From assembly GCA_045046705.1 (NCBI GenBank), contig JASFZB010000007.1, positions 438 to 64,437 on the forward strand: a stretch of DNA of 64,000 nt. Reading direction: 5' to 3'. Numbering within the stretch: the first letter of the stretch is position 1; each line of letters opens with the position of its first letter. Origin of the DNA: Rhodobacterales bacterium. Its GTDB lineage: Bacteria > Pseudomonadota > Alphaproteobacteria > Rhodobacterales > Rhodobacteraceae. Below are positions 1 through 62,833 of the stretch, in pieces. The notes beneath the pieces were generated by a model. That model was not told where the DNA came from. It was given only the letters and a program-made list of their open reading frames with translations, and ran no database searches. The translations under genes and the position numbers were made by a program.

Positions 1-2352
1 TTTTATGTTCGGTTTACGGGCCGTTTTTGGCAAAAAGTCCTTTGCGTTCTTGATCGTCACCTCGCGTTGGGCAAACGGTATTACTATGCCATTGGCCTTG
101 AACCGTTTGACAATTTCGAAATTAATATCCGACGCGGTGCTTAGGACGTAGTTTATATCCCGCAGAATGCCGCGCAATTGGAAGTCCATAGCATCGGTGC
201 CAAACCCCATGAAAACCACTTGCGGTTTGGGAAGCTTCAGCACCATAGGATGATCCCTTGCTATCGACAAAAGAACCTCTTTGACAAGATCAGGATCGGT
301 GCCGTACGCTACGCCCACTGGCACTTTCACGCGGCCACGGACATTGCCATGTGTCCAGTTGGTCACGGCACCTGAAATCAAATCTGCATTAGGGATAATC
401 ACAGAGGCCCCATCGAAGGTCTCGATGGTGGTAGAGCGCACCGATACTTTTTTAATAGTTCCTGAAAAGGTCCCAATATCTACCCAGTCACCGATTTTCA
501 CCGGGCGTTCGATCAGCAGAATAATGCCAGACACAAAATTCGATACGATTGCCTGCAAGCCAAAACCGATACCAACCGACAAAGCACCCGCAACAATCGC
601 AAGACTGGATAAATCCAGCCCCGTGGTGGTAATGGCCACCAGTGCTGCAAGGAAAATACCGACATAACCAAAACCCGTAACAAGCGCATTTTGCGCCCCG
701 CTTTCAATGCGTGTATTGGGAAACACCACAGTTCGAAGGGTGGATTGCAACAATCTTGTGATCGTATAGCCGATAAAGAATATCAGGATAAACACAAGAA
801 AATCCGAGATCGAAATGCGTGTCCCCCCCAAAGAAACACCTTCATTCAACGTAAACCAAAGGTTGGTCAGATCACTTACACGCGCCCCCCAGATCAAAGC
901 AAAAACCGGGATTGACGCGCAGATCAGAAAAAACGCCAAAGCTACTTTGCGCAAATTTCCGTGTGAGTGTTCGGTAACCTCTGACACGTTTTTTGTTTTG
1001 TCGACGGGGCTTAGAAACCGCACCAGCAGGGTATATAGAATGACGATTGCTGCCGACAATGCCAGCGTCAACGCCATCGAAAACACCAGGATGGTCCCTG
1101 CATTGACATAGCCTATAGCCGCCAGCAAGGGGCCGCCAATTCCTGTCAAATAACATGCCAAAGAAAATACCGAAGCAACCCGCTCAGGAATGCTTGCAGA
1201 TCCACCGTCCAACATTAATATTTTTTTATAGTCGTTGATTTGTTGACCGGTTCGGAACAATCCCAAACCCAGAAAAACAACCAGTGGAAACCGTAAAACA
1301 TTCAGGACATCGGTGGGCCATTCCGCCCCTTTGGCCAAACCGCCCAATAGAAAGGAAACACCGATGACAACACCGATAGCCCGAATGATACGTTGGCTTT
1401 TCACCACCATCGCATGATCTATTGTTGTGGCATGCTTACTGTAAATCCGAACCTGTGGTAAGTTTCGCGCCAGCCAGTTTGCACCATAAACAGCCAAACC
1501 AACCCAAGGAATAGACGTAATCATCAAATCCCCGCGTACTGAAAAAAGATCCAGCATAATCAGTGAAGCAAGCAGTAACAACAGGCCTGCGTAAGGGATA
1601 ACAAAGACAGCTATTGAGCTTGCAAAGCGGGTAATATTGCCAAGGTTATTCGGCTTTTCATCATTGGCCGTTTCCATTCGATTATTTACCCAACGGGAAA
1701 TTGGAAACATCAATGCAAGGCCGGAAAGTGTCAGAAAAATCAGGCTAAGCCAGTTTTTCTTTCTTTGGTGTACATTTGTTTGACTGGACCACTGGTTAAG
1801 CGCTTCGGTGCTGATGTCCTGCACATACTTGCTTATGGCATTCAGGGCTTTGGGCCATAAAACCGGGTTAATCGGCGAGCTGTCCAATTGTAAAAGCCTT
1901 GTCGCCTTACGATTTCGAATGGTTTTATCTATTTCACCTATCAAACCGTCGGCGCGACGGTAGGCCTCTTGTGCCACAACCAGAGGGGCGCGTGCTTTAG
2001 CCAATTGCCCGGACAATTCACTGCGCCTGGCCGCAATGTCCGGTGATTCAGTCGCCCCGTTTTCCGGCGCCGGCCCAAGAGCCTTTATTTGTTCTTCAAC
2101 CGTTGCAACACGTTGGCTGCGGGCCTCTTGGGCCTTTAAGGCGCTGGCGCGAAAAGCAGACAAATCTGACCGCAGGATTTCCAATGAGGCCGTCGAAGCC
2201 CGATCATTTGAAACAACGTCTTCCGCACGGGTAGCAAGGTCGCTAAATTTCGCAATATCAAAATCCTCGGCTGGCGTTTGTGCAAAAGCCCCGAGGCTTA
2301 GAAAAAACATCAGCCCGACTGCAATAAATACGCGTTTGAGCATCTGTGTCAT
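1..2352 (-). CDS. Large MscS-family mechanosensitive channel with N-terminal periplasmic (DUF3772-type) region; 3' end runs off the window
   Basis: Absent from the ORF track because there is no stop in the window. Manual translation from ATG at 2352 gives a signal peptide (MTQMLKRVFIAVGLMFFLSLGAFAQ). The C-terminus in the same frame reads PQVVFMGFGTDAMDFQLRGILRD...NFEIVKRFKANGIVIPFAQREV, typical of the MscS cytoplasmic domain. Confidence 0.85.
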   Translation of the reverse strand, partial: MTQMLKRVFIAVGLMFFLSLGAFAQTPAEDFDIAKFSDLATRAEDVVSNDRASTASLEILRSDLSAFRASALKAQEARSQRVATVEEQIKALGPAPENGATESPDIAARRSELSGQLAKARAPLVVAQEAYRRADGLIGEIDKTIRNRKATRLLQLDSSPINPVLWPKALNAISKYVQDISTEALNQWSSQTNVHQRKKNWLSLIFLTLSGLALMFPISRWVNNRMETANDEKPNNLGNITRFASSIAVFVIPYAGLLLLLASLIMLDLFSVRGDLMITSIPWVGLAVYGANWLARNLPQVRIYSKHATTIDHAMVVKSQRIIRAIGVVIGVSFLLGGLAKGAEWPTDVLNVLRFPLVVFLGLGLFRTGQQINDYKKILMLDGGSASIPERVASVFSLACYLTGIGGPLLAAIGYVNAGTILVFSMALTLALSAAIVILYTLLVRFLSPVDKTKNVSEVTEHSHGNLRKVALAFFLICASIPVFALIWGARVSDLTNLWFTLNEGVSLGGTRISISDFLVFILIFFIGYTITRLLQSTLRTVVFPNTRIESGAQNALVTGFGYVGIFLAALVAITTTGLDLSSLAIVAGALSVGIGFGLQAIVSNFVSGIILLIERPVKIGDWVDIGTFSGTIKKVSVRSTTIETFDGASVIIPNADLISGAVTNWTHGNVRGRVKVPVGVAYGTDPDLVKEVLLSIARDHPMVLKLPKPQVVFMGFGTDAMDFQLRGILRDINYVLSTASDINFEIVKRFKANGIVIPFAQREVTIKNAKDFLPKTARKPNIK

Positions 2353-2362
2353 CAGTGATGTC

Positions 2363-3397
2363 CTATTCAAAAACAGACGGAATAACCGCCCCCGGTCCAT
2401 CCAGCCAGCCCGGAACAGGCAGGTTCATCGCCTTCAGGAATTTCGGATTGAAAATCTTCGATTGATAGCGATTGCCATAATCGGCCAAAATGGTCACGAT
2501 AGTATGGCCTGGCCCCATATCTCTGGCCATACGAATGGCGCCGGCAACATTGATGCCGGTCGAGCCCCCCATGCACAGTCCTTCATCCTGCAACAGATCG
2601 AAAATCACCGGCAGGGCTTCGCTGTCGGGGATGTTATAGGGCATATCCACCTTCAGGCCTTCCAGATTGGCGGTAATACGTCCCTGCCCGATACCTTCGG
2701 TGATGCTGTCGCCCGACGATTTCAGTTCGCCATTGACGTAGTAATTATATAACGCCGCCCCATCCGGATCGGCCAAGCCGATTTTGATGTCTTTCGATTT
2801 TTCACGCAAGCCCATGGCCGTACCCGCTAGCGTGCCGCCGGTGCCAACGGCACAAATAAAGCCGTCAAGCTTACCGTCCAAATCCGCATAAATCTCGGGC
2901 GCGGTGCTTGTGATGTGCACATTGCGGTTCGCCACATTATCGAACTGGTTTGCCCAAATAGCCCCGTTAGGTTCGGTTTGTGCAAGTTTTGCAGCCAGAC
3001 GGGCCGAGTACTTTATGTAATTATTGCTATCTTTATAGGGCTTTGCAGGCACCTCTACCAATGTAGCCCCGGCCAGACGGATCATATCCTTCTTTTCCTG
3101 GCTTTGGGTCTCAGGGATCACGATCACGGTTTTATAGCCCATCGAGGCCCCCACAAGGGCAAGCCCGATACCGGTATTGCCGGCGGTGCCTTCAACAATG
3201 GTTCCGCCCGGTTGCAAATCGCCCGATTTGATCGCATCTTGAATAATCCCCAATGCAGCACGGTCTTTCACCGATTGCCCGGGGTTCATAAACTCTGCTT
3301 TGCCGTATATGGCACAGCCGGTCAATTCCGAGGCTTTGCGCAAGCGGATAAGGGGGGTGTTGCCAACAGCATGTACAAGGTCTGGATAAACGTTCAT
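2363..3397 (-). CDS. cysK: Cysteine synthase A (O-acetylserine sulfhydrylase)
   Basis: PLP-lysine motif NPGQSVKDRAA, plus EGTAGNTGIGLA and GTGGT motifs. Confidence 0.93.
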   Translation of the reverse strand: MNVYPDLVHAVGNTPLIRLRKASELTGCAIYGKAEFMNPGQSVKDRAALGIIQDAIKSGDLQPGGTIVEGTAGNTGIGLALVGASMGYKTVIVIPETQSQEKKDMIRLAGATLVEVPAKPYKDSNNYIKYSARLAAKLAQTEPNGAIWANQFDNVANRNVHITSTAPEIYADLDGKLDGFICAVGTGGTLAGTAMGLREKSKDIKIGLADPDGAALYNYYVNGELKSSGDSITEGIGQGRITANLEGLKVDMPYNIPDSEALPVIFDLLQDEGLCMGGSTGINVAGAIRMARDMGPGHTIVTILADYGNRYQSKIFNPKFLKAMNLPVPGWLDGPGAVIPSVFE

Positions 3398-3486
3398 AGC
3401 AGGTCCAATTCAAAAGATTTGTTTATTGATACGATGCATGACTTGCAGCTTCAACACCCAAAATATTTTCGCATTATAGCATTGCC

Positions 3487-3927
3487 CTAAGTCCAGTATC
3501 GGTTTGCCAATCCCGATCCTATCCCGCTAATGCACCCGCCGATCAAAAGCGTCACAACAATGCCCGGATCGGTCAGCACAATCAGGAAATTAATGGCGGA
3601 TGACACCCAAACACTCAAAATACTTGGAAAATCCTTGATATAAAACCCGATGAGCTTAAGGGTCACAAGCCAGCCGCCCCAGAACACGGCAGACACGAAC
3701 ACCAGAACAACAACCCCGCGCAAGCCCGCAACAATCGACCCTATCCCGCCAAATCCGGGATCAAATCCGATAGAGCGCCATCCCACCAGAAAGCCAAGCA
3801 GGGTACTGGCCGGATAATAGCCCAATCCGGTTGGCGCGTTCGAAGACAACGAAATGAATAAATAATATGTGTAGACTGCAGTGCATGCCAGCAACATGCC
3901 CGCGATCAGTTTGGCAGAGGTCAGCAT
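3487..3927 (-). CDS. trgA: TrgA-family membrane protein (tellurite-resistance associated)
   Basis: 146-aa hydrophobic protein starting MLTSAKLIAG with GFLVGWRSIG; lies between cfa and cysK as trgA does in Rhodobacter. Confidence 0.65.
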   Translation of the reverse strand: MLTSAKLIAGMLLACTAVYTYYLFISLSSNAPTGLGYYPASTLLGFLVGWRSIGFDPGFGGIGSIVAGLRGVVVLVFVSAVFWGGWLVTLKLIGFYIKDFPSILSVWVSSAINFLIVLTDPGIVVTLLIGGCISGIGSGLANRYWT

Positions 3928-3930
3928 TGA

Positions 3931-5139
3931 TTATCTCTTTCGCACGGTAACTTGCGTCACATCGGTTGTGCCGTATTTGAAGCCCGAAGCGCAAGAGGTT
4001 AAATAGAAGTTCCACATATTCCTGAAACGGTCATCGAAACTCGCCCCCGAAATTTCATCCCAACGGCCATTGAACGTATCAAACCAGCGGCGCAAAGTGA
4101 CCGAGTAGCTTTTGCCAAACGCCACCTCGCCGCGATATTCCAGCCCCGATTTATCAATCTGTTTTCGCAATACCGTCGGGCTGGGCAGCATCCCGCCCGG
4201 AAATATATGGCGTTGAATGAAGTCAACGGTTTTACGGTAATTGTCGTACAAGCTGTCAGCCATGGTAATCACCTGTAGTGTCGCTTGTTTACCGGGCTTC
4301 AGGCTATCATGCACCGTCTTGAAATAGGATGGCCAGTATTTTTCACCCACCGCCTCGAACATCTCGATGGAAGCAATGCCGTCATAAATACCGGTTTCAT
4401 CGCGGTAATCTTGCAAAACAATGTCGACACGATCGGCTAGCCCCGCCTTGAACATCCGTTCTTTGGCATAATCACGTTGTGCCTTGGAAATCGTCAGGCA
4501 CTTTAGTGTCGCCCCGCGCGTACCGGCGGCATATTCAGCAAATCCCCCCCACCCGCAGCCGATTTCCAACAGATGATCGCCGCTTTGCATTGCCATCAGA
4601 TCACAAATAGAGGCATATTTTTGAATTTGCGCTTTTTCCAGACTTTCCTGACCGGTTTTGAACAAGGCCGACGAATATGTCATGGTGTCATCCAGCCATT
4701 TAGCGTAGAAATCATTGCCCAGATCGTAATGGTACGATATGTTTTTTTGGGCTTGTTCCTTGGTGTTGCGATGCATCCAGTGGCGAAAGCGTTCATACAT
4801 GCGCAGCAGGCCGGAACCCGGGTAAGATTTGGAAATTTCGTTGAAATTATCGAAAACCAGATCCAGAAAAGCCTGCAAGTCGGGGCTGACCCATTGGCCT
4901 TCCAGATAAGCATCCGAGAACCCCATATCGCCTTCACGGATCAGCCGCGACCAGACATCATCGTTTTTTGAAACCACACGGGCATAATTGCCCGGTTCAG
5001 GGCCGTTTATACGAAACACACGGCCATCGGTGATCTCTAAATCCAGCTCCCCCCTTTTTAGTGTTTTCAAAGAAGCAAAGACCAAAGAAAAGTAGCGCGG
5101 CAGGTCTTTTTGACCTTTTGTCGAGGTAAAAATAGCCAT
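3931..5139 (-). CDS. cfa: Cyclopropane-fatty-acyl-phospholipid synthase family SAM methyltransferase
   Basis: NISYHYDLGNDFY, LEIGCGWGG, SIEMFEAVG and IFPGGMLP motifs. Confidence 0.9.
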   Translation of the reverse strand: MAIFTSTKGQKDLPRYFSLVFASLKTLKRGELDLEITDGRVFRINGPEPGNYARVVSKNDDVWSRLIREGDMGFSDAYLEGQWVSPDLQAFLDLVFDNFNEISKSYPGSGLLRMYERFRHWMHRNTKEQAQKNISYHYDLGNDFYAKWLDDTMTYSSALFKTGQESLEKAQIQKYASICDLMAMQSGDHLLEIGCGWGGFAEYAAGTRGATLKCLTISKAQRDYAKERMFKAGLADRVDIVLQDYRDETGIYDGIASIEMFEAVGEKYWPSYFKTVHDSLKPGKQATLQVITMADSLYDNYRKTVDFIQRHIFPGGMLPSPTVLRKQIDKSGLEYRGEVAFGKSYSVTLRRWFDTFNGRWDEISGASFDDRFRNMWNFYLTSCASGFKYGTTDVTQVTVRKR

Positions 5140-9777: not shown

Positions 9778-9854
<77 letters not shown>

Positions 9855-33871: not shown

Positions 33872-36004
33872 TTATTCTCCCGATTTTGTATGCTTGACCA
33901 ATTCCAGAACTTCTTTTGCCGCTGCCGGTATGTTTGTGCCGGGCCCGAATATTGCCCGCACCCCGACTTGCCGCAAGAAGTTGTAATCATTGGGCGGGAT
34001 CACCCCGCCGCAAATCACGATAATATTGCCGCCGCCCTTGTTTTTCAGAGCATGCACCAGTTGCGGGGCCAGCGTGGTGTGGCCTGCCGCCTGTGACGAG
34101 ATACCAACAACATCGACACCTTTTTCGATGGCATCTATTGCCGCCTCTTCAGGGGTTTGAAACAGCGGCCCCATCTCAATATCAAAGCCAATGTCGGCAA
34201 ACGCCGTGGCAATGACCTTGCCGCCACGATCATGGCCGTCCTGCCCCATCTTGACCACCATCATCGACGGCTTTTTTCCGTATTTAACAGCAAAATCCGC
34301 AACTTCCGCCTGAATATCCAGAAACCCTTGATCGCCTGCGTATGCGGCACCATAGACCCCTGACAAAAGCTTTACCTTGGCCTTATGCCGGCCGAAGGCG
34401 CGTTCCATCGCGTCCGAGATTTCACCCACGGTGGCCCGCGCACGGGCGGAATCCACCGCCAACTCCAGCAGGTTGCCATTACCGCGTGCACCCGCTTCCA
34501 GCGCGCCCAATGTCGCATCGCAAACCGCCGTATCACGGGTTTTTCTAATCTCTTTCAACCGTTTGATTTGCGCATCGCGCACAGCGGTATTGTCGATCTC
34601 GCGCACATCAATTTCGGCATCATCATCAGTTTGAAACTTGTTCACACCAACGATAATATCTTCACCACGGTCCACCCGCGCCTGTTTTCTCGCCGCCGCT
34701 TCCTCAATGGCCAGCTTCGGCATGCCGTCTTCAACGGCTTTGGTCATACCGCCCATAGCATCGACCTGCCCGATCAATTCCCACGCTTTATCGGCCAGTT
34801 CTTTGGTCAGGCTTTCAACATAATACGACCCTGCCAGCGGATCGACCACATTGGTCACGCCGGTTTCATTTTGCAAGATCAGTTGGGTATTTCGCGCCAA
34901 ACGCGCCGCCGCATCGGATGGCAAGGCTATGGCTTCATCATAGCTGTTGGTGTGCAACGACTGGGTGCCGCCCAACACCGCTGACATGGCCTCGTATGCG
35001 GTGCGAATGGCGTTGTTATAGGGGTCTTGTTCCTGCAAAGACACGCCGCTGGTCTGGCAATGGGTACGCAGCATCAAGGACTTTTCCTGCTTCGCGCCAA
35101 ACTCGGTCATGATCCGGTGCCACAACAACCGTGCCGCGCGTAATTTGGCCGCTTCCATAAAAAAGTTCATACCGATGGCGAAAAAGAACGACAGGCGCGG
35201 CGCAAACGCATCCACATCCATGCCGCGTGCCATAGCCGCGCGCACATATTCCTTACCATCCGCCAGCGTGAACGCCAGTTCCTGCACCAAGGTCGCGCCG
35301 GCTTCTTGCATATGATAGCCGCTGATCGAAATCGAGTTGAACTTGGGCATCTCGCGGCGGGTATAATCAATAATGTCCGAGACAATCCGCATTGAGGGTT
35401 CTGGCGGGTAGATATAAGTGTTGCGCACCATGAATTCCTTCAGCACATCGTTTTGAATGGTGCCCGACAGTTTGGCGCGGTCTACGCCCTGCTCTTCACC
35501 GGCCACGATAAAGCTGGCCAGCACCGGAATGACCGCGCCGTTCATCGTCATCGAAACGCTGACTTTATCCAAGGGAATGCCGTCAAACAGGATCTTCATG
35601 TCCTCGACACTGTCAATCGCTACACCGGCCTTGCCGACATCGCCCACAACCCGCTCATGGTCGCTGTCATAGCCGCGATGGGTGGCCAGGTCGAAAGCTA
35701 CGGAAACCCCCTGCTGCCCGCCTGCCAGCCCCTTGCGGTAAAACGCATTGCTTTCTTCCGCCGTTGAAAAGCCCGCATATTGCCGGATCGTCCAAGGGCG
35801 GCCCGCATACATCGTGGCCTTTGGCCCGCGCAGGAACGGGGCCGAACCGGGGGTGGAATTCAATGTATCCAGCCCTTGCAAATCATCCGCCGTATAAAGC
35901 GGCTTTACCGCAATGCCTTCCGGCGTATGCCAAGTCAAATCTTCCAAAGCCCGACCGCGCAGTTCTTTTTCCGCCAGCTTTTCCCAGTCCCGCCGCTTGC
36001 CCAT
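33872..36004 (-). CDS. scpA: Methylmalonyl-CoA mutase (B12-dependent)
   Basis: [42 protein letters not shown] and B12 motif [10 protein letters not shown]. Confidence 0.97.
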
Positions 36005-38004
36005 TATTCAAACTCCATGATAATTTCGTCAACGGCCAGATTGTCACCCACACCGGCGTTGATTTTCGTCACCAGACCATGCTTTTCCGCCCGCAGCACA
36101 TTCTCCATCTTCATCGCCTCGACCGTGCATAAGGTCTGGCCTTCCTGCACTTCGTCGCCCACGGCCACGCTTAGATCTACGATCAGCCCCGGCATCGGGC
36201 AAAGCAGCAGTTTGGACGTGTCAGGGGCTTGTTTTTCAAGCATATATTCAGCTAATTCAGCGCGGCGCGGGGTGTGGATGATAACGTCCGCCGCAGCCCC
36301 CCGATAGCGGATATGATAGCCCGAGCTAACGACAGCCACTTTCAACACCAACGGCACATCATCTATCATGAAGGTCGCCAGTTGTTGCCCCGGCACCCAA
36401 TCACTGGTTACACGATGTTTTGTGCCATCCTTGAAAGTGACGGTAGAGCCGTCGGGGTCTGCATCAATTTTCACGTCAAAACGCGCGTTTTGTACGGTCA
36501 AAACCCAATCCGTGCCAACTTTACGTTCATGATTGTCAAGCCGCCCCGACACCCGCGAGCGGCGAATTTCAGCGACGCGGTACATCGCGGCGCAGGCTGT
36601 TGCAATACGTTGTAACGTGGTTTCATCCAAATCAACCCCGTTAAAACCTTGGGGATATTCCTCTTCAATAAACGCCGTTGTGATCTCGCCGCTCACAAAG
36701 CGCGGGTGATCCATTACCGCCGATAAAAACGGCAGATTGTGACCGATGCCTTCAACCTCGAACCCGTCCAAAGCATTGCGCATCACTTCAATGGATTTTG
36801 CCCGATCAGGCGCCCAGGAACACAGCTTGGCAATCATCGGATCATAAAACATCGAGATCTCGCCACCCTCATAAACGCCGGTGTCATTGCGCACGGCCAT
36901 CACATCGTTGGCAACTTCCACGGGTGGACGGTAGCGCGACAAACGGCCAATCGAGGGCAGAAAATTGCGGTACGGATCTTCGGCATAAAGCCGGCTTTCC
37001 ATCGCCCAGCCGTTGATGCCGATGTCCGATTGCACAAACGGCAACTTTTCACCTGCGGCGACGCGGATCATCTGTTCAACCAGATCAATACCGGTGATCA
37101 GCTCGGTCACGGGGTGTTCGACTTGCAGACGCGTATTCATTTCCAGAAAATAGAAATTTCGCTCACCGTCAACGATAAATTCCACCGTCCCCGCCGAGCA
37201 ATAATCCACCGCTTGCGCCAGGGCACAGGACTGTTCGCCCATGGCTTTGCGCGTGGCTGCATCCAGAAACGGGCTTGGGGCTTCTTCGATAACTTTTTGA
37301 TTGCGCCGCTGGATCGAGCATTCGCGTTCATTAAGATAAACACAGTTTCCATGCTTGTCCCCCAACACCTGAATTTCGATATGGCGCGGTTGGGTGATGA
37401 ATTTCTCGATAAAAATACGGTCATCGCCAAAACTGCTGGCGGCTTCATTCTTTGACAGTTGAAAGCCCTCGCGGGCTTCCGCGTCATTCCATGCCACCCG
37501 CATGCCCTTGCCGCCTCCACCAGCAGAGGCCTTGATCATCACCGGATAACCGATCTGGTTCGATATTTTGACCGCCTCGTCCGCGTCTGCAATCTCGCCC
37601 ATAAAGCCCGGAACTATGGTTACTCCGGCTTCGGCTGCCAGTTTTTTCGATGTGATTTTATCCCCCATCGCTTCAATCGCCCCCGCTGGCGGGCCGATGA
37701 AAGCGACGCCCGCTTTTTCCAAAGCCTGCGCAAACAGTTTATTTTCCGACAAAAACCCATATCCGGGATGCACCGCTTCGGCCCCTGTTTGACGCACAGC
37801 ATCCATCACTTTATCCAGAACGATATAACTTTGTGCCGCAGGCGACGGACCGATATGCACCGCTTCATCGGCCATTTTGACATGCAACGCCTCTTTGTCC
37901 GCATCCGAATAAACCGCAACTGTTTTGATCCCCATCTTCTGGGCCGATTTGATCACACGACAGGCAATTTCGCCGCGATTGGCAATAAGAATTTTCTTAA
38001 ACAT
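36004..38004 (-). CDS. pccA: Propionyl-CoA carboxylase alpha subunit (biotin carboxylase plus biotin carrier)
   Basis: [33 protein letters not shown] and biotin site EAMKME; TAA overlaps the scpA ATG. Confidence 0.96.
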
Positions 38005-38058
38005 ATAAAACACCGTTGTTTGTTATCGGGGTAGATTGGGATTGGGCAGATTTATACC

Positions 38059-38195
38059 AAAAAAAAGGGGCCCTGTCGTAAAAACGAAAGGGCCCCAGTA
38101 GAGGGGAAATGAAAGAGTTTAACCGCATGGAAATGCGGAAAACCTCTTGATCGGGTTTTGCTTTCACCAGCACCGCACCCGACCAGTACGTCATT
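38059..38195 (-). ncRNA. Candidate structured RNA (three hairpins plus U8 tail) upstream of pccA
   Basis: Minus-strand stems GGTCGGGT/ACCCGATC, CCGCAT-TTCC-ATGCGG and GGGGCCCT/AGGGCCCC followed by T8. Confidence 0.55.
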
Positions 38196-38328
38196 GAAGT
38201 TCCAAAAGAGCTTCCTTGAGATTTATGGTAAACCGGTTTTATCGTGCTGCATATGGTGGTGTTCTTTTGCGCCTTGTTTTGGGCAAAAAGCCGCCAAACT
38301 TGGGTTATGTTGCGCGAATACATGCCGA

Positions 38329-38676
38329 TCAGTCCTTAAACACGTCTGGAAAGCTGACCATAGCCCGGCCTACATTGATCTTAAGTAGAGCCGCGTAATC
38401 TTGCGGATCAAAAGAATCGTCGGCAGGCTCAACCTCGCGGCCAAACAGCCAGCTTAAACGCCCCGCATCAAGATTGCCGCGTTCAAAGGGTTGATCCCCG
38501 AAACAATCCCAAAGTGCCTGCATAAAGCCCGCATCGGCAAGGCGGTCGGCAAACCTGCGGTCAGCATAGCGTTCTCGGGCAACCAGTTTGGTTGCGCCTG
38601 CCTTATTGGCACGCCGAATTGTAAACTGAAAATCAGAGCTGGGAAGTCGGGACGGAAACCCGCGATGTTTTAACAT
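38329..38676 (-). CDS. Conserved hypothetical protein of Rhodobacterales pcc clusters
   Basis: 115 aa; RGFPSRLP..FQFTIRRAN and PFERGNLDAGRLSWLFGREV recalled as conserved between pccB and pccA. Confidence 0.7.
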   Translation of the reverse strand: MLKHRGFPSRLPSSDFQFTIRRANKAGATKLVARERYADRRFADRLADAGFMQALWDCFGDQPFERGNLDAGRLSWLFGREVEPADDSFDPQDYAALLKINVGRAMVSFPDVFKD

Positions 38677-38711
38677 GGGCGCCCCCCGAAATTATCTAAC
38701 GGGGCGCAGCC

Positions 38712-38738
38712 CAATACCCCTAAGGGGTATTGTTTTTT
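38712..38738. terminator. Hairpin CAATACCCC-TAA-GGGGTATTG with T6 on the + strand
   Basis: Perfect 9-bp stem directly 3' of the small lipoprotein stop. The U-tract is on the opposite strand, so it may be an mRNA-stabilising stem or an antisense terminator. Confidence 0.5.
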
Positions 38739-38889
38739 AAGATGCTGGCAGTTTTTGTGAAGTGGGTTCTGCCACGATCGGTGTTGGCTCAGGTGCTGCT
38801 GCAGGGCCAGCGGATGAGGATGAATTTGCACATGCAGACAGGCCAAGAGCCGTTGCGAAAAGTGCTGCAATTGTGATTGTTTTAGACAT
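38737..38889 (-). CDS. 50-aa lipoprotein (not in ORF track)
   Basis: AGGAG RBS; MSKTITIAALFATALGLSA-CANSSSSAGPAAAPEPTPIVAEPTSQKLPAS. Confidence 0.8.
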   Translation of the reverse strand: MSKTITIAALFATALGLSACANSSSSAGPAAAPEPTPIVAEPTSQKLPAS

Positions 38890-39099
38890 AGAAAACTCCT
38901 AATTTCAGTGCGATCCAATTCAATTTTTATTTGGAACGTCTTTAGGTTAGCAGTATTTGTTTTGAAAAAATAGAACCTTGATGGGAATCGACAAAAAAAT
39001 CGAAATATTGTGCGTTCCAATGCCCCCCCGACGTTAACAAACCTTGTGGCACCCGCTTGTTTTGAAGGTGATTTATTATTTAGTATCATTGCTATATCC

Positions 39100-40632
39100 C
39101 TACAAAGGCAAATTATCATGCTTGCGCCATGGGTTTTCGATTTTTTTCGATTTAAGACTGGCAAACGCCCGCGAAACCCGCATTCGGGTATTTTGCGGCA
39201 TAATAACCTCGTCAATAAAACCGTTTTCCGCCGCAACAAATGGATTTGCAAAACGGGTTTCGTAATCCACAGTCAGGGCGGCGATTTTCTGCGCGTCCCC
39301 TAGATCGGAACGGTGCAGAATTTCAACCGCACCCTTGGCCCCCATTACGGCAATTTCGGCTGTGGGCCAGGCATAATTCACATCGCCCCCCAAATGTTTC
39401 GGCGACATCACACAATAAGCCCCGCCATAGGCTTTGCGCGTTATTACCGTCACGCGCGGCACCGTGGCTTCGCCAAAAGCGTAAAGCAGTTTGGCCCCGT
39501 GTTTGATCACGCCGCCATATTCCTGCGCCGTTCCCGGCAAAAAGCCCGGCACATCTACCAGGGTCAGCAACGGAATTTCAAACGCATCGCAGAACCGCAC
39601 GAAGCGCGCCGCCTTGCGCGATGAATTTATGTCCAGACAGCCTGCCAGCACCATCGGTTGATTGGCCACGACACCCACAGTCGAGCCTTCAAGGCGAATA
39701 AATCCGGTCAGGATATTTTTGGCAAAATCCGGTTGGATCTCACAAAAATCGCCCTCGTCCGCCAGTTTTTGCACCAGCTCTTTCATGTCATAGGGCGTAT
39801 TGGCATTTTCGGGAACGATAGTATCCAAAGACGGCTCTTTGCGCGCCGGATCGTCGAAAAACGGCCGCACAGGCGGTTTTGATTTGTTGTTCAGGGGCAG
39901 GAAGTCAAACAGGCGGCGCACTTCCATCAGCGCGTCCATATCGTTGTCAAAGGCGCAATCCGCCACCGATGATTTGCTTGTGTGGGTTTTCGCCCCGCCC
40001 AGTTCTTCCGCTGTCACAACCTCGTTGGTCACGGTTTTCACCACATCGGGGCCGGTTAGAAACATATAAGAGCTGTCGCGCACCATAAAGATGAAGTCCG
40101 TCAAGGCAGGCGAATAAACCGCCCCCCCCGCACTTGGTCCCATAATCACACTGATTTGCGGGATCACGCCCGAGGCCTTGATATTGTTTTGAAACACCGA
40201 TGTGTAGCCCGCCAACGAGGCCACGCCCTCTTGTATGCGTGCGCCGCCTGAATCGTTCAACCCGATGATCGGAACGCCATTGCGCATGGCCATTTCCTGA
40301 ACCTTGCAGATTTTCTTGGCGTGGGTGACGGACAGTGATCCGCCGTAAACCGTGAAATCCTGACTAAAGACATAAACCATGCGGCCATTGATCGTACCCC
40401 AGCCGGTAACAACGCCGTCGCCGGGGATATGTTCCTTGTCCATGCCGAAATCCTGGCATTTGTGGGTCACGAACATATCGAATTCTTCGAAAGAACCTTC
40501 ATCCAGCAACACTTCGATGCGTTCACGCGCCGTTAGTTTACCTTTGGCGTGCTGCACGTCAATGCGCCGCGCACCGCCGCCAAGTTTAGCCCCAGCCCTG
40601 CGGTTTTCCAATTGTTGGATTATGTTAGGCAC
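39100..40632 (-). CDS. pccB: Propionyl-CoA carboxylase beta subunit
   Basis: GTG start after GGAGG; [33 protein letters not shown] and RKAYGGAY motifs; 510 aa. Confidence 0.96.
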
Positions 40633-40703
40633 GCGAATTCCTCCCAAAACTTTTCTTGCTATTCTACATGAACGCGCGGGGCTTGAAAGGCAATATTAGT
40701 TAA

Positions 40704-40759
40704 TTTGCAAAACTATAATATTTTCGCTATTGCTATTTGCAAAGTTGCAAAGTTGCAAA
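40704..40759. promoter_or_regulatory. PccR-type operator: TTTGCAAA plus tandem TTTGCAAA-GTTGCAAA-GTTGCAAA
   Basis: Boxes at 40704, 40736, 40744 and 40752 between divergent pccB and pccR; TTTGCAAA is the known ScfR/PccR half-site. Confidence 0.85.
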
Positions 40760-40772
40760 GATTGGACTCGTT

Positions 40773-42185
40773 ATGGCAAACAACAAACTTTATGCAGGGG
40801 TCGCCTTGCGCGAAATTCGCTATGAATTCCGGTTGACCCAAAAACAGTTTGCCGAAAGGCTGAACATTTCCCTACCCTACCTAAGCCAGATGGAAAACAA
40901 TCACCGCCCCATCGCCGCATCCGTGGTTCTGGCACTGGCGCGGGATTTCCATTTCGATGTCTCGAAACTTGCGGGCGGCGACACCCCGCGAATTATAGCC
41001 GATATGAAAGAGGCCCTGGCCGACCCCGCCTTCAAGGATGCCCAGGTCAGTTTGGCGGATTTGCAACTGACCGCCTCAAACGCCCCTACGCTGGCACGGG
41101 CGTTTCTGGATCTGCATCGCACCTACCGTCAGGCACAGGAACGGCTTGCCTCACTAGACGAAGCTTTGGGGCGTGAGGGCGGTTCGGTAACAGTTTCACC
41201 TTGGGAAGAGGTGCGGGATTTCTTTCATTATTGCGATAATTACATTGATGCCATTGACCGATCTGCGGAAAGTTTTTCACATAAATTAGCACAAAGCGGA
41301 CAATCCATACATAATGCCTTGATCCAGTGGCTATCGCACAAACATCACCTGACAGTGCAGTTTGATACAAGCGCCAGCCTGCGGAATTTGGATCATGGTC
41401 GCCGAATTCTTGCTCTGTCAAAAACCGCCAGCAGCCAATCTCAAGCTTTTCAAATGGCGCATCAGGTCGCCCTCTTGGCGCATAATGATTTGATCGAGGC
41501 CAGCTTGGACATGGCGCGTTTCAGCACGCTTGAAGCCCGCGATATATGCAAGATTGGGCTTGCCAATTACTTTGCGGGGGCCACGCTTTTACCCTATGCC
41601 GAGTTTCTGCAAGCCGCACAGGAATGCCGCCATGATCTGGAAATTCTGGCCCTGCGCTTCGGGGCCTCGCTGGAACAGGTCGCACACCGCTTGTCGACCC
41701 TGCAACGCGCCGGGCTTAAGGGAATACCGTTCTTTTTCGTCCGCGTTGATCAGGCCGGCACCATCACCAAACGCCATTCGGCCACCAAGCTGCAATTCGC
41801 CCGTTACGGCGGGGCTTGCCCGTTATGGAACGTACACCGCGCCTTTGAAACCCCGGGGCGGTTCTTGCGGCAACTAGCCGAAACCCCGGACGGGGCGCGG
41901 TACTTCTGTCTGGCCCGTGATGTTTCAAAACCCGCAGGGGCCTTTCACGCGCCCATCAGGCGATATGCCATCGGTCTGGGCTGCGAGGTCAAACATGCAG
42001 GCGCGTTGGTCTATGCCGACGATATGGGCATCAAGAACGCCCAAGCCTTTGAACCCATCGGAATTTCGTGCCGGATTTGCGAGCGTGACAACTGTCACCA
42101 AAGATCAATCCCGCCCTTGGAGCGCCGCCTGAAGGTTGATCACAACGCACGCGGTGTGTTGCCCTATTCGCTTTCGGAAAAGTAA
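40773..42185 (+). CDS. pccR: ScfR-family (XRE-IrrE-ScfR) regulator of propionyl-CoA assimilation
   Basis: XRE HTH (SLPYLSQMENNHRP), SPWEEVRDFFH, GLANYFAGA, ITKRHSAT and CPLWNVH motifs, C-terminal GISCRICERDNCHQRS; divergent from pccB. Confidence 0.9.
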   Translation: MANNKLYAGVALREIRYEFRLTQKQFAERLNISLPYLSQMENNHRPIAASVVLALARDFHFDVSKLAGGDTPRIIADMKEALADPAFKDAQVSLADLQLTASNAPTLARAFLDLHRTYRQAQERLASLDEALGREGGSVTVSPWEEVRDFFHYCDNYIDAIDRSAESFSHKLAQSGQSIHNALIQWLSHKHHLTVQFDTSASLRNLDHGRRILALSKTASSQSQAFQMAHQVALLAHNDLIEASLDMARFSTLEARDICKIGLANYFAGATLLPYAEFLQAAQECRHDLEILALRFGASLEQVAHRLSTLQRAGLKGIPFFFVRVDQAGTITKRHSATKLQFARYGGACPLWNVHRAFETPGRFLRQLAETPDGARYFCLARDVSKPAGAFHAPIRRYAIGLGCEVKHAGALVYADDMGIKNAQAFEPIGISCRICERDNCHQRSIPPLERRLKVDHNARGVLPYSLSEK

Positions 42186-56038: not shown

Positions 56039-56113
56039 TGGTGCTGCAAGGGAGAATTGAACTCCCGACCTCGTCATTACCAATGACGCGCTCTACCACT
56101 GAGCTACTGCAGC
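56039..56113 (-). tRNA. tRNA-Thr(GGT)
   Basis: Reverse complement gives GCTGCAG...TTGCAGC-ACCA; anticodon arm CGTCA-TTGGTAA-TGACG. Confidence 0.96.
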
Positions 56114-62758: not shown

Positions 62759-62833
62759 GCCCGGGTAGCTCAGGGGTAGAGCAGTGGACTGAAAATCCTC
62801 GTGTCGGTGGTTCAAATCCGCCCCCGGGCACCA
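62759..62833 (+). tRNA. tRNA-Phe(GAA)
   Basis: GCCCGGG...CCCGGGC-ACCA; anticodon loop CTGAAAA; upstream TTGCCA-N17-TAAAAC promoter-like site. Confidence 0.95.

Follow-up and report, generated by a model that had tools for sequence, protein, structure and literature searches.

A conserved RNA element inside a stop-free frame upstream of pccA in Rhodobacterales: a candidate translation-sensitive attenuator and anti-Shine-Dalgarno small RNA

The 64,000-nt stretch analysed here, from a marine Rhodobacterales bacterium that is Amylibacter-like by its best protein matches (GenBank assembly GCA_045046705.1, contig JASFZB010000007.1; ‘the window’) carries on its minus strand a conserved structured RNA element within the propionyl-CoA carboxylase (PCC) operon, between pccB and pccA. 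The element (38184-38059) consists of two hairpins, an unpaired CU-rich box and a GC hairpin followed by eight U residues (U8), and covariation among relatives shows that it is a selected RNA structure. An open reading frame (ORF), termed ORF0, runs across the whole element to the start of pccA, and its frame appears to be kept free of stop codons without selection at the protein level. This bridge ORF, conserved yet non-coding-like, is the most surprising feature of the locus. The reading favoured here, with a probability of about 0.45, is that of a translation-sensitive attenuator inside the operon, the terminated product of which is probably an anti-Shine-Dalgarno small RNA (sRNA).

Structure and conservation of the element

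The stems, linker, terminator and U8 tract described in an initial annotation of this DNA are all present on the minus strand, and the minimum free energy (MFE) fold of positions 38200-38055 (146 nt) gives the same three hairpins, at −57.5 kcal/mol. Dinucleotide shuffles of this segment (n = 200) gave −37.9 ± 3.8 kcal/mol (z = −5.14) and none was as good. The first hairpin, P1 (38149-38184), pairs GGTCGGGT with ACCCGATC (38184-38177 with 38156-38149; GGUCGGGU...ACCCGAUC at the RNA level) around an inner TGCT/AGCA (UGCU/AGCA) stem. In the MFE fold the outer stem of P1 is formed by 38184-38178 with 38155-38149 (columns 24-30/53-59 of alignment A1, below), and the inner stem, GCU(U/G)/AAGC (38171-38168 with 38163-38160), is capped by a GNRA-type tetraloop. 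The second hairpin, P2 (38113-38148), has the sequence AGAGGTTT..CCGCAT-TTCC-ATGCGG..AAACTCT (AGAGGUUU..CCGCAU-UUCC-AUGCGG..AAACUCU as RNA), with an outer AAGAG/CUCUU stem, an inner CCGC/GCGG stem and a CU-rich loop that reads UUUCC in the window and CUUCC or CCUCC in relatives. The motif CATTTCC had been described as occurring twice in unpaired positions, but the first copy is only partly unpaired since CAU/AUG closes the P2 loop.

P2 is followed by a 17-nt linker, TTCATTTCCCCTCTACT (UUCAUUUCCCCUCUACU as RNA; 38113-38097), which contains the CU-rich box (U)UCAUUUCCCCUCUACU (38097-38112). None of the MFE, centroid and consensus folds pairs the box, which is a candidate anti-Shine-Dalgarno seed. 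The predicted intrinsic terminator, T1 (38059-38096), comprises a 12-13 bp GC-rich hairpin (38096-38067; GGGGCCCT..AGGGCCCC, with the left arm GGGGCCCU at the RNA level) and the U8 tract (38066-38059), and its U8 end is separated from the pccA ATG (38004) by a 54-nt spacer.

The window-type comparison set comprises 10 full copies together with a variant found in loci L090 and L091. Its sources were three genomes or contigs, found through neighbours of ORF115, the conserved hypothetical gene that always lies ahead of the element, and nine metagenome contigs, found through an exact 21-mer of the box. All nine of these box-bearing metagenome matches adjoin pccA, and the distance from the ORF115 stop to the box is 206 nt, with zero indels, in every window-type copy. 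Locus L086 was omitted from the structure counts because its contig ends (3056-3083) in a Nextera adapter, CTGTCTCTTATACACATCTGAC, and its terminator has thus been lost to an assembly artefact.

The consensus fold of the resulting alignment, A1, is the fold drawn in the initial annotation. In total, 95.7% of the pair cells are paired (10 sequences), versus 30-50% when the partners are slid, and 11 pairs have changed on both sides, a number reached by none of 500 shuffles. The initial annotation had named a lack of conserved structure among the grounds for abandoning its proposal; the 11 compensatory pairs instead show that the element is a selected RNA structure. The changes are distributed over all three hairpins. 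The P1 outer stem has compensatory changes in five of its seven pairs; the P1 inner stem is invariant, and its tetraloop varies among relatives as GUGA, GAGA, GCAA and GCGA, all of the GNRA type. In the inner stem of P2 pairing is 100%, one pair is compensatory and there are several G-U changes, and T1 has four compensatory pairs in the window clade, where the U-run is 5-8 nt long. The 17-nt box/linker is invariant in 10 of 10 full copies and the box is also invariant in L090 and L091. The T1-pccA spacer (42-67 nt) is not conserved in relatives.

An optional extra helix (38172-38192; 38192-38188 with 38176-38172) crosses P1. It is GACGC/GCGUC in relatives, and four of its five pairs form in the window. 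In A1 this helix (GACGC/GCUGC-type, columns 16-20 with 32-36) is paired in 98% of the cells of the 10 sequences, versus 6-64% when slid, with one compensatory pair, and it could be either an H-type pseudoknot or an alternative fold. Moreover, the conserved RNA reaches approximately 130 nt further 5′ than the initial annotation had drawn it, up to the ORF115 stop. This conserved 5′ part of the spacer (38193-38328) could form another three hairpins, the first over the ORF0 AUG (38325-38312), the second of sequence UUUGGCGG..GCCCAAA (38298-38278) and the third of sequence UCAAGGAAG..CUUCAAUGA (38219-38191). Their helices are 95% paired, versus 32-55% when slid, with no compensatory change, so these hairpins are conserved but unproven as structure. 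At window position 38210, in a conserved AAGGAAG block upstream of P1, A replaces G in the X1 metagenome, the only run that covers the window nearly fully. A further helix, which would join the U-run over a long range to an A-rich tract (ORF0 codons 5-8), was also considered and set aside, as its support was weak and it forms poorly in the window.

An open frame crosses the element and its terminator

ORF0 (37997-38323, minus strand; 108 codons) begins at an ATG 5 nt past the ORF115 stop, crosses P1, P2, the CU-rich box, T1 and the U-run, and ends at a TAA inside pccA codons 2-3 (ATGTTTAA). In relatives its start overlaps or lies near the ORF115 stop (for example as ATGA), and in L091 the start is GTG (GTGA). 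The initial annotation did not extend to this frame; that no stop interrupts it across the element and its terminator as far as the pccA start points to translation, and not a ligand, as what would decide readthrough.

The frame is open well beyond the window. Frame 0 has no stop-bearing codon column in the 11 of 11 window-type sequences, and the other two frames have 12 and 13. Among 30 distant loci the ORF0 frame is stop-free over 330-1930 nt in 21, and in the remaining nine its stop falls only 1-48 nt short of the pccA ATG; the other frames of these loci mostly contain 3-10 stops. For control gaps in the same loci, any open frame at all was found in only 5 of 41 pccA-mutase gaps and 3 of 33 pccB-ORF115 gaps. 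The distance from the ORF0 ATG to the conserved core (see below) takes eleven values, from 149 to 215 nt, all of them 2 mod 3, in 21 of 24 loci. At locus L023 the post-ORF115 frame (2070-4001) runs for 1931 nt without a stop, with 22 and 20 stops in the other frames, and crosses what seems to be the start of an opposite-strand gene just upstream of pccA.

Coding tests on ORF0 gave the values expected of non-coding sequence. Divergence by codon position is 0.26/0.27/0.30, that is without 3-nt periodicity; the ratio of non-synonymous to synonymous change (pN/pS) is 0.80, compared with 0.84-0.92 for out-of-frame controls and 0.17 for ORF115; and the GC content at the three codon positions is flat, whereas ORF115 and pccA show the usual strong pattern. 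No Pfam or NCBIfam family matched ORF0, gene callers skip it, and one predicted homologue was found among 5.8 billion proteins. Together, these data indicate that the frame is kept stop-free without protein-level selection. ‘Synonymous’ divergence in ORF0 (0.29) is under half that in ORF115 (0.66), and ‘synonymous’-site substitution in the 5′ part of the spacer is 0.29-0.37, so that nucleotide-level constraint extends over the entire spacer, the 130 nt ahead of P1 included. An N-terminal motif of ORF0, WRxxIAQ, coincides with a hairpin such as GGCGG-CAAA-UCGCC or CGGCAA-GAAA-UUGCCG. As the same site forms a conserved hairpin, no protein-level conservation is claimed for the motif, and conservation of protein or of RNA could equally account for it.

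Two other explanations of the frame were discarded. An antisense gene does not lie behind it, as the plus strand has no long ORF, and the Ruegeria pomeroyi proteogenomic ORF SPO_PG022 is not ORF0, as it is located just past pccB and encodes a normal-looking protein.

The module across the Rhodobacterales

Eighty pccA loci were taken from species-representative genomes. An nhmmer search of these loci with the window element found almost nothing, and blastn against a plasmid collection gave no match; distant homology was assigned instead by position and motif. By these means a related module was recognised in approximately 25 of the 37 Rhodobacterales pcc loci that have ORF115, 165-225 nt past the ORF115 stop. 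In this diverged module one or two small hairpins are followed by CCGUUACCCUUCCCCU and then by a long GC hairpin with a short U-run. Its CCCUUCC (CCCTTCC) core is invariant in an alignment of 20 genera, the remainder of which is approximately 50% identical, and in 20 distant loci the terminator covaries at 8 of 8 consensus pairs. A closing stem, GUAGUGG/CCGUUAC, is found in many members and takes the form GUGGCGG/CCGCCGC in L013, the locus of Roseovarius sp. 217. The L090/L091 variant (AACCGUUAAACUCUUUCAUUUCCCCUCUACU) bridges the window-type and GC-rich forms. A covariance model built from A1 (R1) scored L090 and L091 at 52 bits and L021 at E = 0.009, and gave weak matches, at the right place, to three GC-rich members, and so links the window and GC-rich forms weakly. 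The 5′ hairpins of the window clade are not conserved in the GC-rich relatives; the CU box is.

In many genera a gene for a small Gly-zipper lipoprotein (YMGG-like), with its own terminator, is located between the module and pccA. Its frame is always +2 relative to ORF0, and ORF0 overlaps the whole gene. Examples from the set L001-L045 lie at approximately 3669-3875 in L037 and 3672-3869 in L001, with a two-hairpin, terminator-like tail. In L090 and L091 the order is reversed, and the RNA element follows the Gly-zipper gene. Other relatives lack the module, and in them ORF115 lies directly against pccA. Since the Gly-zipper gene can intervene, or ORF115 can abut pccA without the module, the module is no obligatory pccA leader.

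Several GC-rich members have a promoter-like sequence, CTTGGC-N17-GCAAT(G/C), just ahead of the closing stem. It is read in differing frames between species, which suggests that it is a promoter. Two other promoter assignments were rejected: a sigma-54 promoter at TGGCGG-N-TGC, as the spacing is one base short in all copies, and an EcfG-type GGAAC-N16-CGTT promoter, as the motif is not conserved.

At gathering score the only Rfam 15 matches in the 64-kb window are three tRNA genes (9778-9851, 56042-56113 and 62759-62830), and no family was found at gathering score on 14 related loci. An Rfam search had been proposed in the initial annotation as a check on the element, and it did not assign the element to a family; a permissive search of the 551-nt spacer region gave a single sub-threshold similarity, to RF00519 (suhB/MmgR, alphaR8), which scored 21.5 bits (E = 0.044; gathering score 41). 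This match covers only 38054-38127, the box and the terminator. The earlier view that the element does not resemble a cobalamin riboswitch was borne out, as no cobalamin or other Rfam riboswitch class matched at E up to 10 and no aptamer-like core is conserved across the family.

A proposed translation-sensitive attenuator that may release an sRNA

The initial annotation had offered an operon-derived sRNA or a regulated attenuator as alternatives. Both remain viable, and the present data suggest that they are two sides of one device. A sequence scan of the window found no promoter-like site between T1 and pccA. As the T1-pccA spacer is in addition not conserved, and ORF115 abuts pccA in some relatives, pccA would most simply be transcribed through T1 from the pccB promoter. 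Polymerase that starts at this promoter, under control of the regulator PccR, probably must pass T1 in order to express pccA, the mutase gene and the acyl-CoA synthetase gene. Translation would restart on ORF0 right at the ORF115 stop, and since ORF0 evolves like non-coding sequence it would seem to be its translation that matters and not its product. A ribosome on ORF0 close behind the polymerase would melt T1, which is the principle of the pyrBI and pyrE attenuators, and would also be delivered to the weak pccA start. Lagging or failed translation would allow T1 to form and transcription to stop. The terminated 3′ fragment, either whole or processed to approximately 130 nt, would fold as predicted, with the box exposed, and would probably act in trans through this anti-Shine-Dalgarno box in the manner of alphaR8/MmgR-type sRNAs. 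In GC-rich relatives the promoter-like CTTGNC-N17-GCAAT(G/C) inside ORF0 could make the RNA independently; such transcripts would start downstream of the ORF0 AUG, and would therefore be untranslated and efficiently terminated. In this way the proposed attenuator-sRNA would reconcile the seed-like conservation of the box with the bridge ORF.

An extension of this proposal to the whole order is put forward only tentatively, and its odds are clearly below even. In that form the sole reason to keep a non-coding-like frame open would be the passage of ribosomes from ORF115 to pccA, across an sRNA module, one or two terminators and often an out-of-frame Gly-zipper gene, and translation would gate the choice between the full-length pcc-mcm mRNA and an alphaR8-like anti-Shine-Dalgarno sRNA.

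Several of the same observations would also be accounted for if the element were a free-standing sRNA gene that resembles alphaR8/MmgR, acts in trans, has a promoter and terminator of its own and was inserted between ORF115 and pccA. The most conserved part of the element is a single-stranded CU-rich box beside a terminator, the usual seed pattern, and its sub-threshold Rfam match is to RF00519. In GC-rich relatives CTTGGC-N17-GCAATG lies approximately 7-10 nt ahead of the covarying closing stem GUAGUGG/CCGUUAC, in frames that differ between species, as expected of a motif conserved as DNA and not as protein. The open frame would then be irrelevant and pccA would be reached by leaky readthrough or from an unrecognised promoter. 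This explanation is considered unlikely, as it leaves the stop-free frame 0 and the indels in multiples of three unexplained, the window clade offers no recognisable promoter, the 130 nt upstream of P1 are also constrained at the nucleotide level, and the element is tied to pccA in every copy found, unlike the alphaR8 siblings, which occur at varied loci (PMC12559287). The strict synteny with pccA would agree with a purely cis-acting element, as a leader, attenuator or stabiliser of an mRNA segment, with the whole 265-nt spacer forming a structured intercistronic RNA that sets the PccA:PccB ratio through translation coupling or through a bound protein or ligand and has no function in trans. 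Conservation and pairing potential over the whole spacer, the possible pseudoknot or alternative helix and the ORF through the terminator all agree with such a role, and there is a precedent in the Rhodobacter puf operon, where intercistronic hairpins set segmental mRNA stability. The presence in many relatives of the Gly-zipper gene, with its own terminator, between element and pccA means, however, that the target is not always adjacent. Across the order the CU box is conserved and the 5′ hairpins are not, which fits a pairing seed better than an aptamer, and no Rfam riboswitch or leader matches. A solely cis-acting role is thus held to be a little less likely again than a free-standing sRNA gene.

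Two simpler explanations each leave much of the evidence aside. ORF0 could be an ordinary, fast-evolving protein-coding gene in whose mRNA the hairpins are incidental: its frame is open, with in-frame indels, at every locus, it always has a start codon preceded by a G-rich stretch, and poorly conserved yet translated ORFs have been found by proteogenomics in roseobacter operons (PMC3305630). Against this, the pN/pS of 0.80 is like that of the out-of-frame controls, periodicity and codon-position GC pattern are lacking, no Pfam or NCBIfam family matches, only one predicted homologue was found among 5.8 billion proteins, the 17-nt box has zero synonymous variation and the stems covary for pairing and not for residues, so that this account appears highly improbable. 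The least credible of all is that T1 is a plain terminator closing a pccB-ORF115 operon, with pccA served by its own constitutive promoter and the upstream hairpins due to chance or stabilising. A strong hairpin with U8 and, directly past the U-run in the window, a TATAAAT sequence would agree with it; neither this TATAAAT nor any part of the 42-67 nt spacer is conserved in relatives, however, no promoter-like site was found there, the hairpins covary, the box is invariant across genera and an open frame bridges the terminator.

Several points weigh against the attenuator-sRNA proposal itself. What is said here of termination and readthrough at T1, of a discrete sRNA and of ORF0 translation is prediction from sequence; sequencing runs screened for RNA from the locus or its relatives proved to be DNA metagenomes or empty metatranscriptomes. 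No recognisable promoter for a separate sRNA was found in the window clade, and neither the pccA start (−2.1 kcal/mol) nor the other starts in the window are notably complementary to the box. The RF00519 score is well under threshold, so that membership of this family model fails, and RF00519 gave no match at E up to 5 in seven GC-rich relatives. Several GC-rich relatives, L031 and L045 among them, have a short or absent U-run, so the hairpin may not always terminate. The out-of-frame overlap of ORF0 with a real Gly-zipper gene in many relatives is odd for a translated ORF. Finally, an attenuator placed between the genes for PccA and PccB, which are needed equally, has no obvious rationale.

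With regard to possible targets, sequestration of the pccA ribosome-binding site by the box in cis was rejected for the window clade on the basis of the −2.1 kcal/mol value. In GC-rich relatives the GGAAGGGA start region is complementary to CCCUUCC, but it is also a plain Shine-Dalgarno sequence. A seed-target scan within the 64-kb window gave nothing special.

Gene context

The genes on the minus strand are, in order, pccB, an ORF of approximately 135 codons, ORF115, the 325-nt spacer with the element, pccA, methylmalonyl-CoA mutase and acyl-CoA synthetase. Pfam agrees with the names that the initial annotation had given to pccB, pccA, the mutase and the synthetase. The terminator does lie inside the pcc operon, as had been stated; its placement simply between pccB and pccA was incomplete, as the 135-codon ORF and ORF115 also intervene. 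In R. pomeroyi, co-transcription of pccB with its two downstream genes was demonstrated by reverse-transcription PCR (PMC3305630).

The beta-subunit gene pccB (39100-40647, minus strand; Pfam carboxyl transferase) begins as a mechanical ORF at TTG 40647, and GTG 40632, with GGGAGG ahead at the right distance, is its likely true start. The alpha-subunit gene pccA (36004-38004, minus strand) begins at ATG 38004 and has Pfam biotin carboxylase, PCC_BT and biotinyl domains; the sole Shine-Dalgarno-like sequence at its start is a weak GGUG. ORF115 (38329-38676, minus strand) encodes a well-conserved protein of 115 amino acids, for which 7918 homologous clusters but neither a Pfam nor an NCBIfam family were found. 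The position of ORF115 in Rhodobacterales is always between pccB and pccA, and because of this constant placement its product is a candidate accessory factor of PCC.

The pccB-ORF115 gap (38670-39090, minus strand; approximately 410-420 nt in the window clade) is also crossed by a single open frame. The same frame is present in L081 (2097-2507) and L083 (2100-2504), where it starts 12-18 nt past the pccB stop, and in L084, L085, L087, L088 and L092. In L083 it shares 4 nt with the start of ORF115; in the window and L081 the shared stretch is 7 nt. The product is junk-like (rich in Q, L, R, S and C) yet contains a conserved stretch, AICQKQLHLSHFFW...SQEP..VLG, and the frame may be a second bridge ORF or mark another RNA element. 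In L082, which is the locus of Amylibacter sp. SFDW26 and of the window type, and in L089 and L091 this gap holds a real DUF6497 gene.

Divergent from pccB is pccR (40737-42185, plus strand), encoding a regulator of the ScfR family (Pfam HTH_3, Peptidase_M78 and ScfRs). The pccR-pccB intergenic region contains, together with a promoter-like match, a candidate PccR operator and pccB promoter region (40705-40760, minus strand) with three copies of CTTTGCAA in tandem, at a period of 9, and a fourth box, TTTGCAAA, 22 nt further on. These boxes are likely a PccR/ScfR operator; they presumably correspond to the PccR operator of Rhodobacter sphaeroides, for which Carter and Alber, in 2015, reportedly described a TTTGCAAA motif. 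PccR boxes near the RNA element were sought and rejected, as the TTTGCAA repeats occur only upstream of pccB.

Significance

In marine roseobacters, PCC and methylmalonyl-CoA mutase occupy a central place both in the use of propionate and in the assimilation of acetate through the ethylmalonyl-CoA pathway, and PccR, a transcriptional regulator, is to our knowledge the only known regulator of these enzymes. A conserved RNA module with a strong mid-operon terminator would imply a second layer of control, after initiation. Should the terminated product indeed prove to be an sRNA whose seed is anti-Shine-Dalgarno, it would represent a new riboregulator of the whole order, made in step with operon activity, and if the gating is true, expression of the propionyl-CoA and ethylmalonyl-CoA pathways would be linked with translation status as well as with other mRNAs, such as those of polyhydroxybutyrate (PHB) metabolism. 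Moreover, an open frame that lacks a coding signature and yet extends across terminators and an embedded gene suggests that ‘translate-through’ ORFs may be selectable purely for the coupling of transcription and translation. Genome annotation misses such ORFs completely, as the single prediction among 5.8 billion proteins illustrates, and they may explain poorly conserved ORFs in other roseobacter operons.

Comparison with known RNAs and attenuators

The initial annotation had likened the box to the seeds of AbcR-type sRNAs. The CU box, the most conserved part of the module across genera, is a candidate anti-Shine-Dalgarno seed, and the nearest known kind is alphaR8/MmgR, not AbcR, at 21.5 bits versus a gathering score of 41. 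AbcR1/2, NfeR1 and the CcsR or ‘cuckoo’ RNAs likewise carry CU-rich motifs, both in the loop of a hairpin and in a single-stranded linker ahead of a terminator, and are expected to pair with ribosome-binding sites; none of them matched the element in Rfam at E up to 10, and the motif of the element is unlike CCUCCUCCC.

The alphaR8 sRNAs (MmgR of Sinorhizobium meliloti, SuhB of Sphingopyxis granuli and SisA-D of Caulobacter; RF00519) are the only Rfam family with any similarity to the element. They are defined by a Rho-independent terminator and a single-stranded 10-mer, UUUCCUCCCU, after a weak hairpin (PMC12559287). The element likewise has a 3′ terminator of this type, with a covarying 12-13 bp GC hairpin and U8, and its UUUCCCCUCU is identical to the 10-mer at 8 of 10 positions, is unpaired and lies downstream of P2; the order-wide core is CCCUUCCCCU, and the preceding hairpins are strong, not weak. 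The likeness is that of an alphaproteobacterial RNA with a terminator after a single-stranded CU-rich anti-Shine-Dalgarno stretch, itself preceded by a hairpin. The differences are its length (approximately 130 nt or longer, with two strong hairpins, versus approximately 77 nt for alphaR8), its strict tie to one operon and its position inside an open reading frame, its own transcription being predicted only. There is also a thematic likeness, in the carbon flux of acetyl-CoA and PHB: MmgR and SuhB restrain PHB accumulation, and the ethylmalonyl-CoA pathway of Rhodobacterales shares its acetoacetyl-CoA pool with PHB and ends in PCC and the mutase, which makes a biological link possible.

The enterobacterial pyrBI and pyrE attenuators are translation-coupled, and in them a ribosome close behind the polymerase blocks the hairpin. 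They share with the present locus an intrinsic terminator that lies upstream of the regulated gene within an ORF, the end of which falls at or close to the start of that gene: here the frame is open through the terminator to the pccA start in 11 of 11 window-type copies and nearly all of the 30 distant loci, and is presumably translated. In contrast to pyrBI and pyrE, ORF0 is 100 to more than 300 codons long, begins anew where the preceding gene stops, crosses extra conserved hairpins and, in many relatives, also an embedded gene and a second terminator, and no link to a nucleotide pool is evident. In S. meliloti, rnTrpL is an attenuator-derived sRNA that acts in trans, located in a 5′ leader that encodes the 14-amino-acid peptide peTrpL with Trp codons. 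It resembles the element in being alphaproteobacterial and in carrying an ORF on the same RNA as the attenuator, with action in trans a proposal in the present case; it differs in that the element is intercistronic and its ORF is long, with no regulatory codon run.

A search of the literature found neither the box sequence nor a pcc-linked sRNA, and the accessible text of the R. pomeroyi sRNA catalogue, which is not conclusive on this point, has no entry near pccA. Overall, the element is absent from Rfam and from the literature searched, and the label that suits it best joins two known kinds of RNA, the anti-Shine-Dalgarno sRNA and the translation-coupled attenuator.

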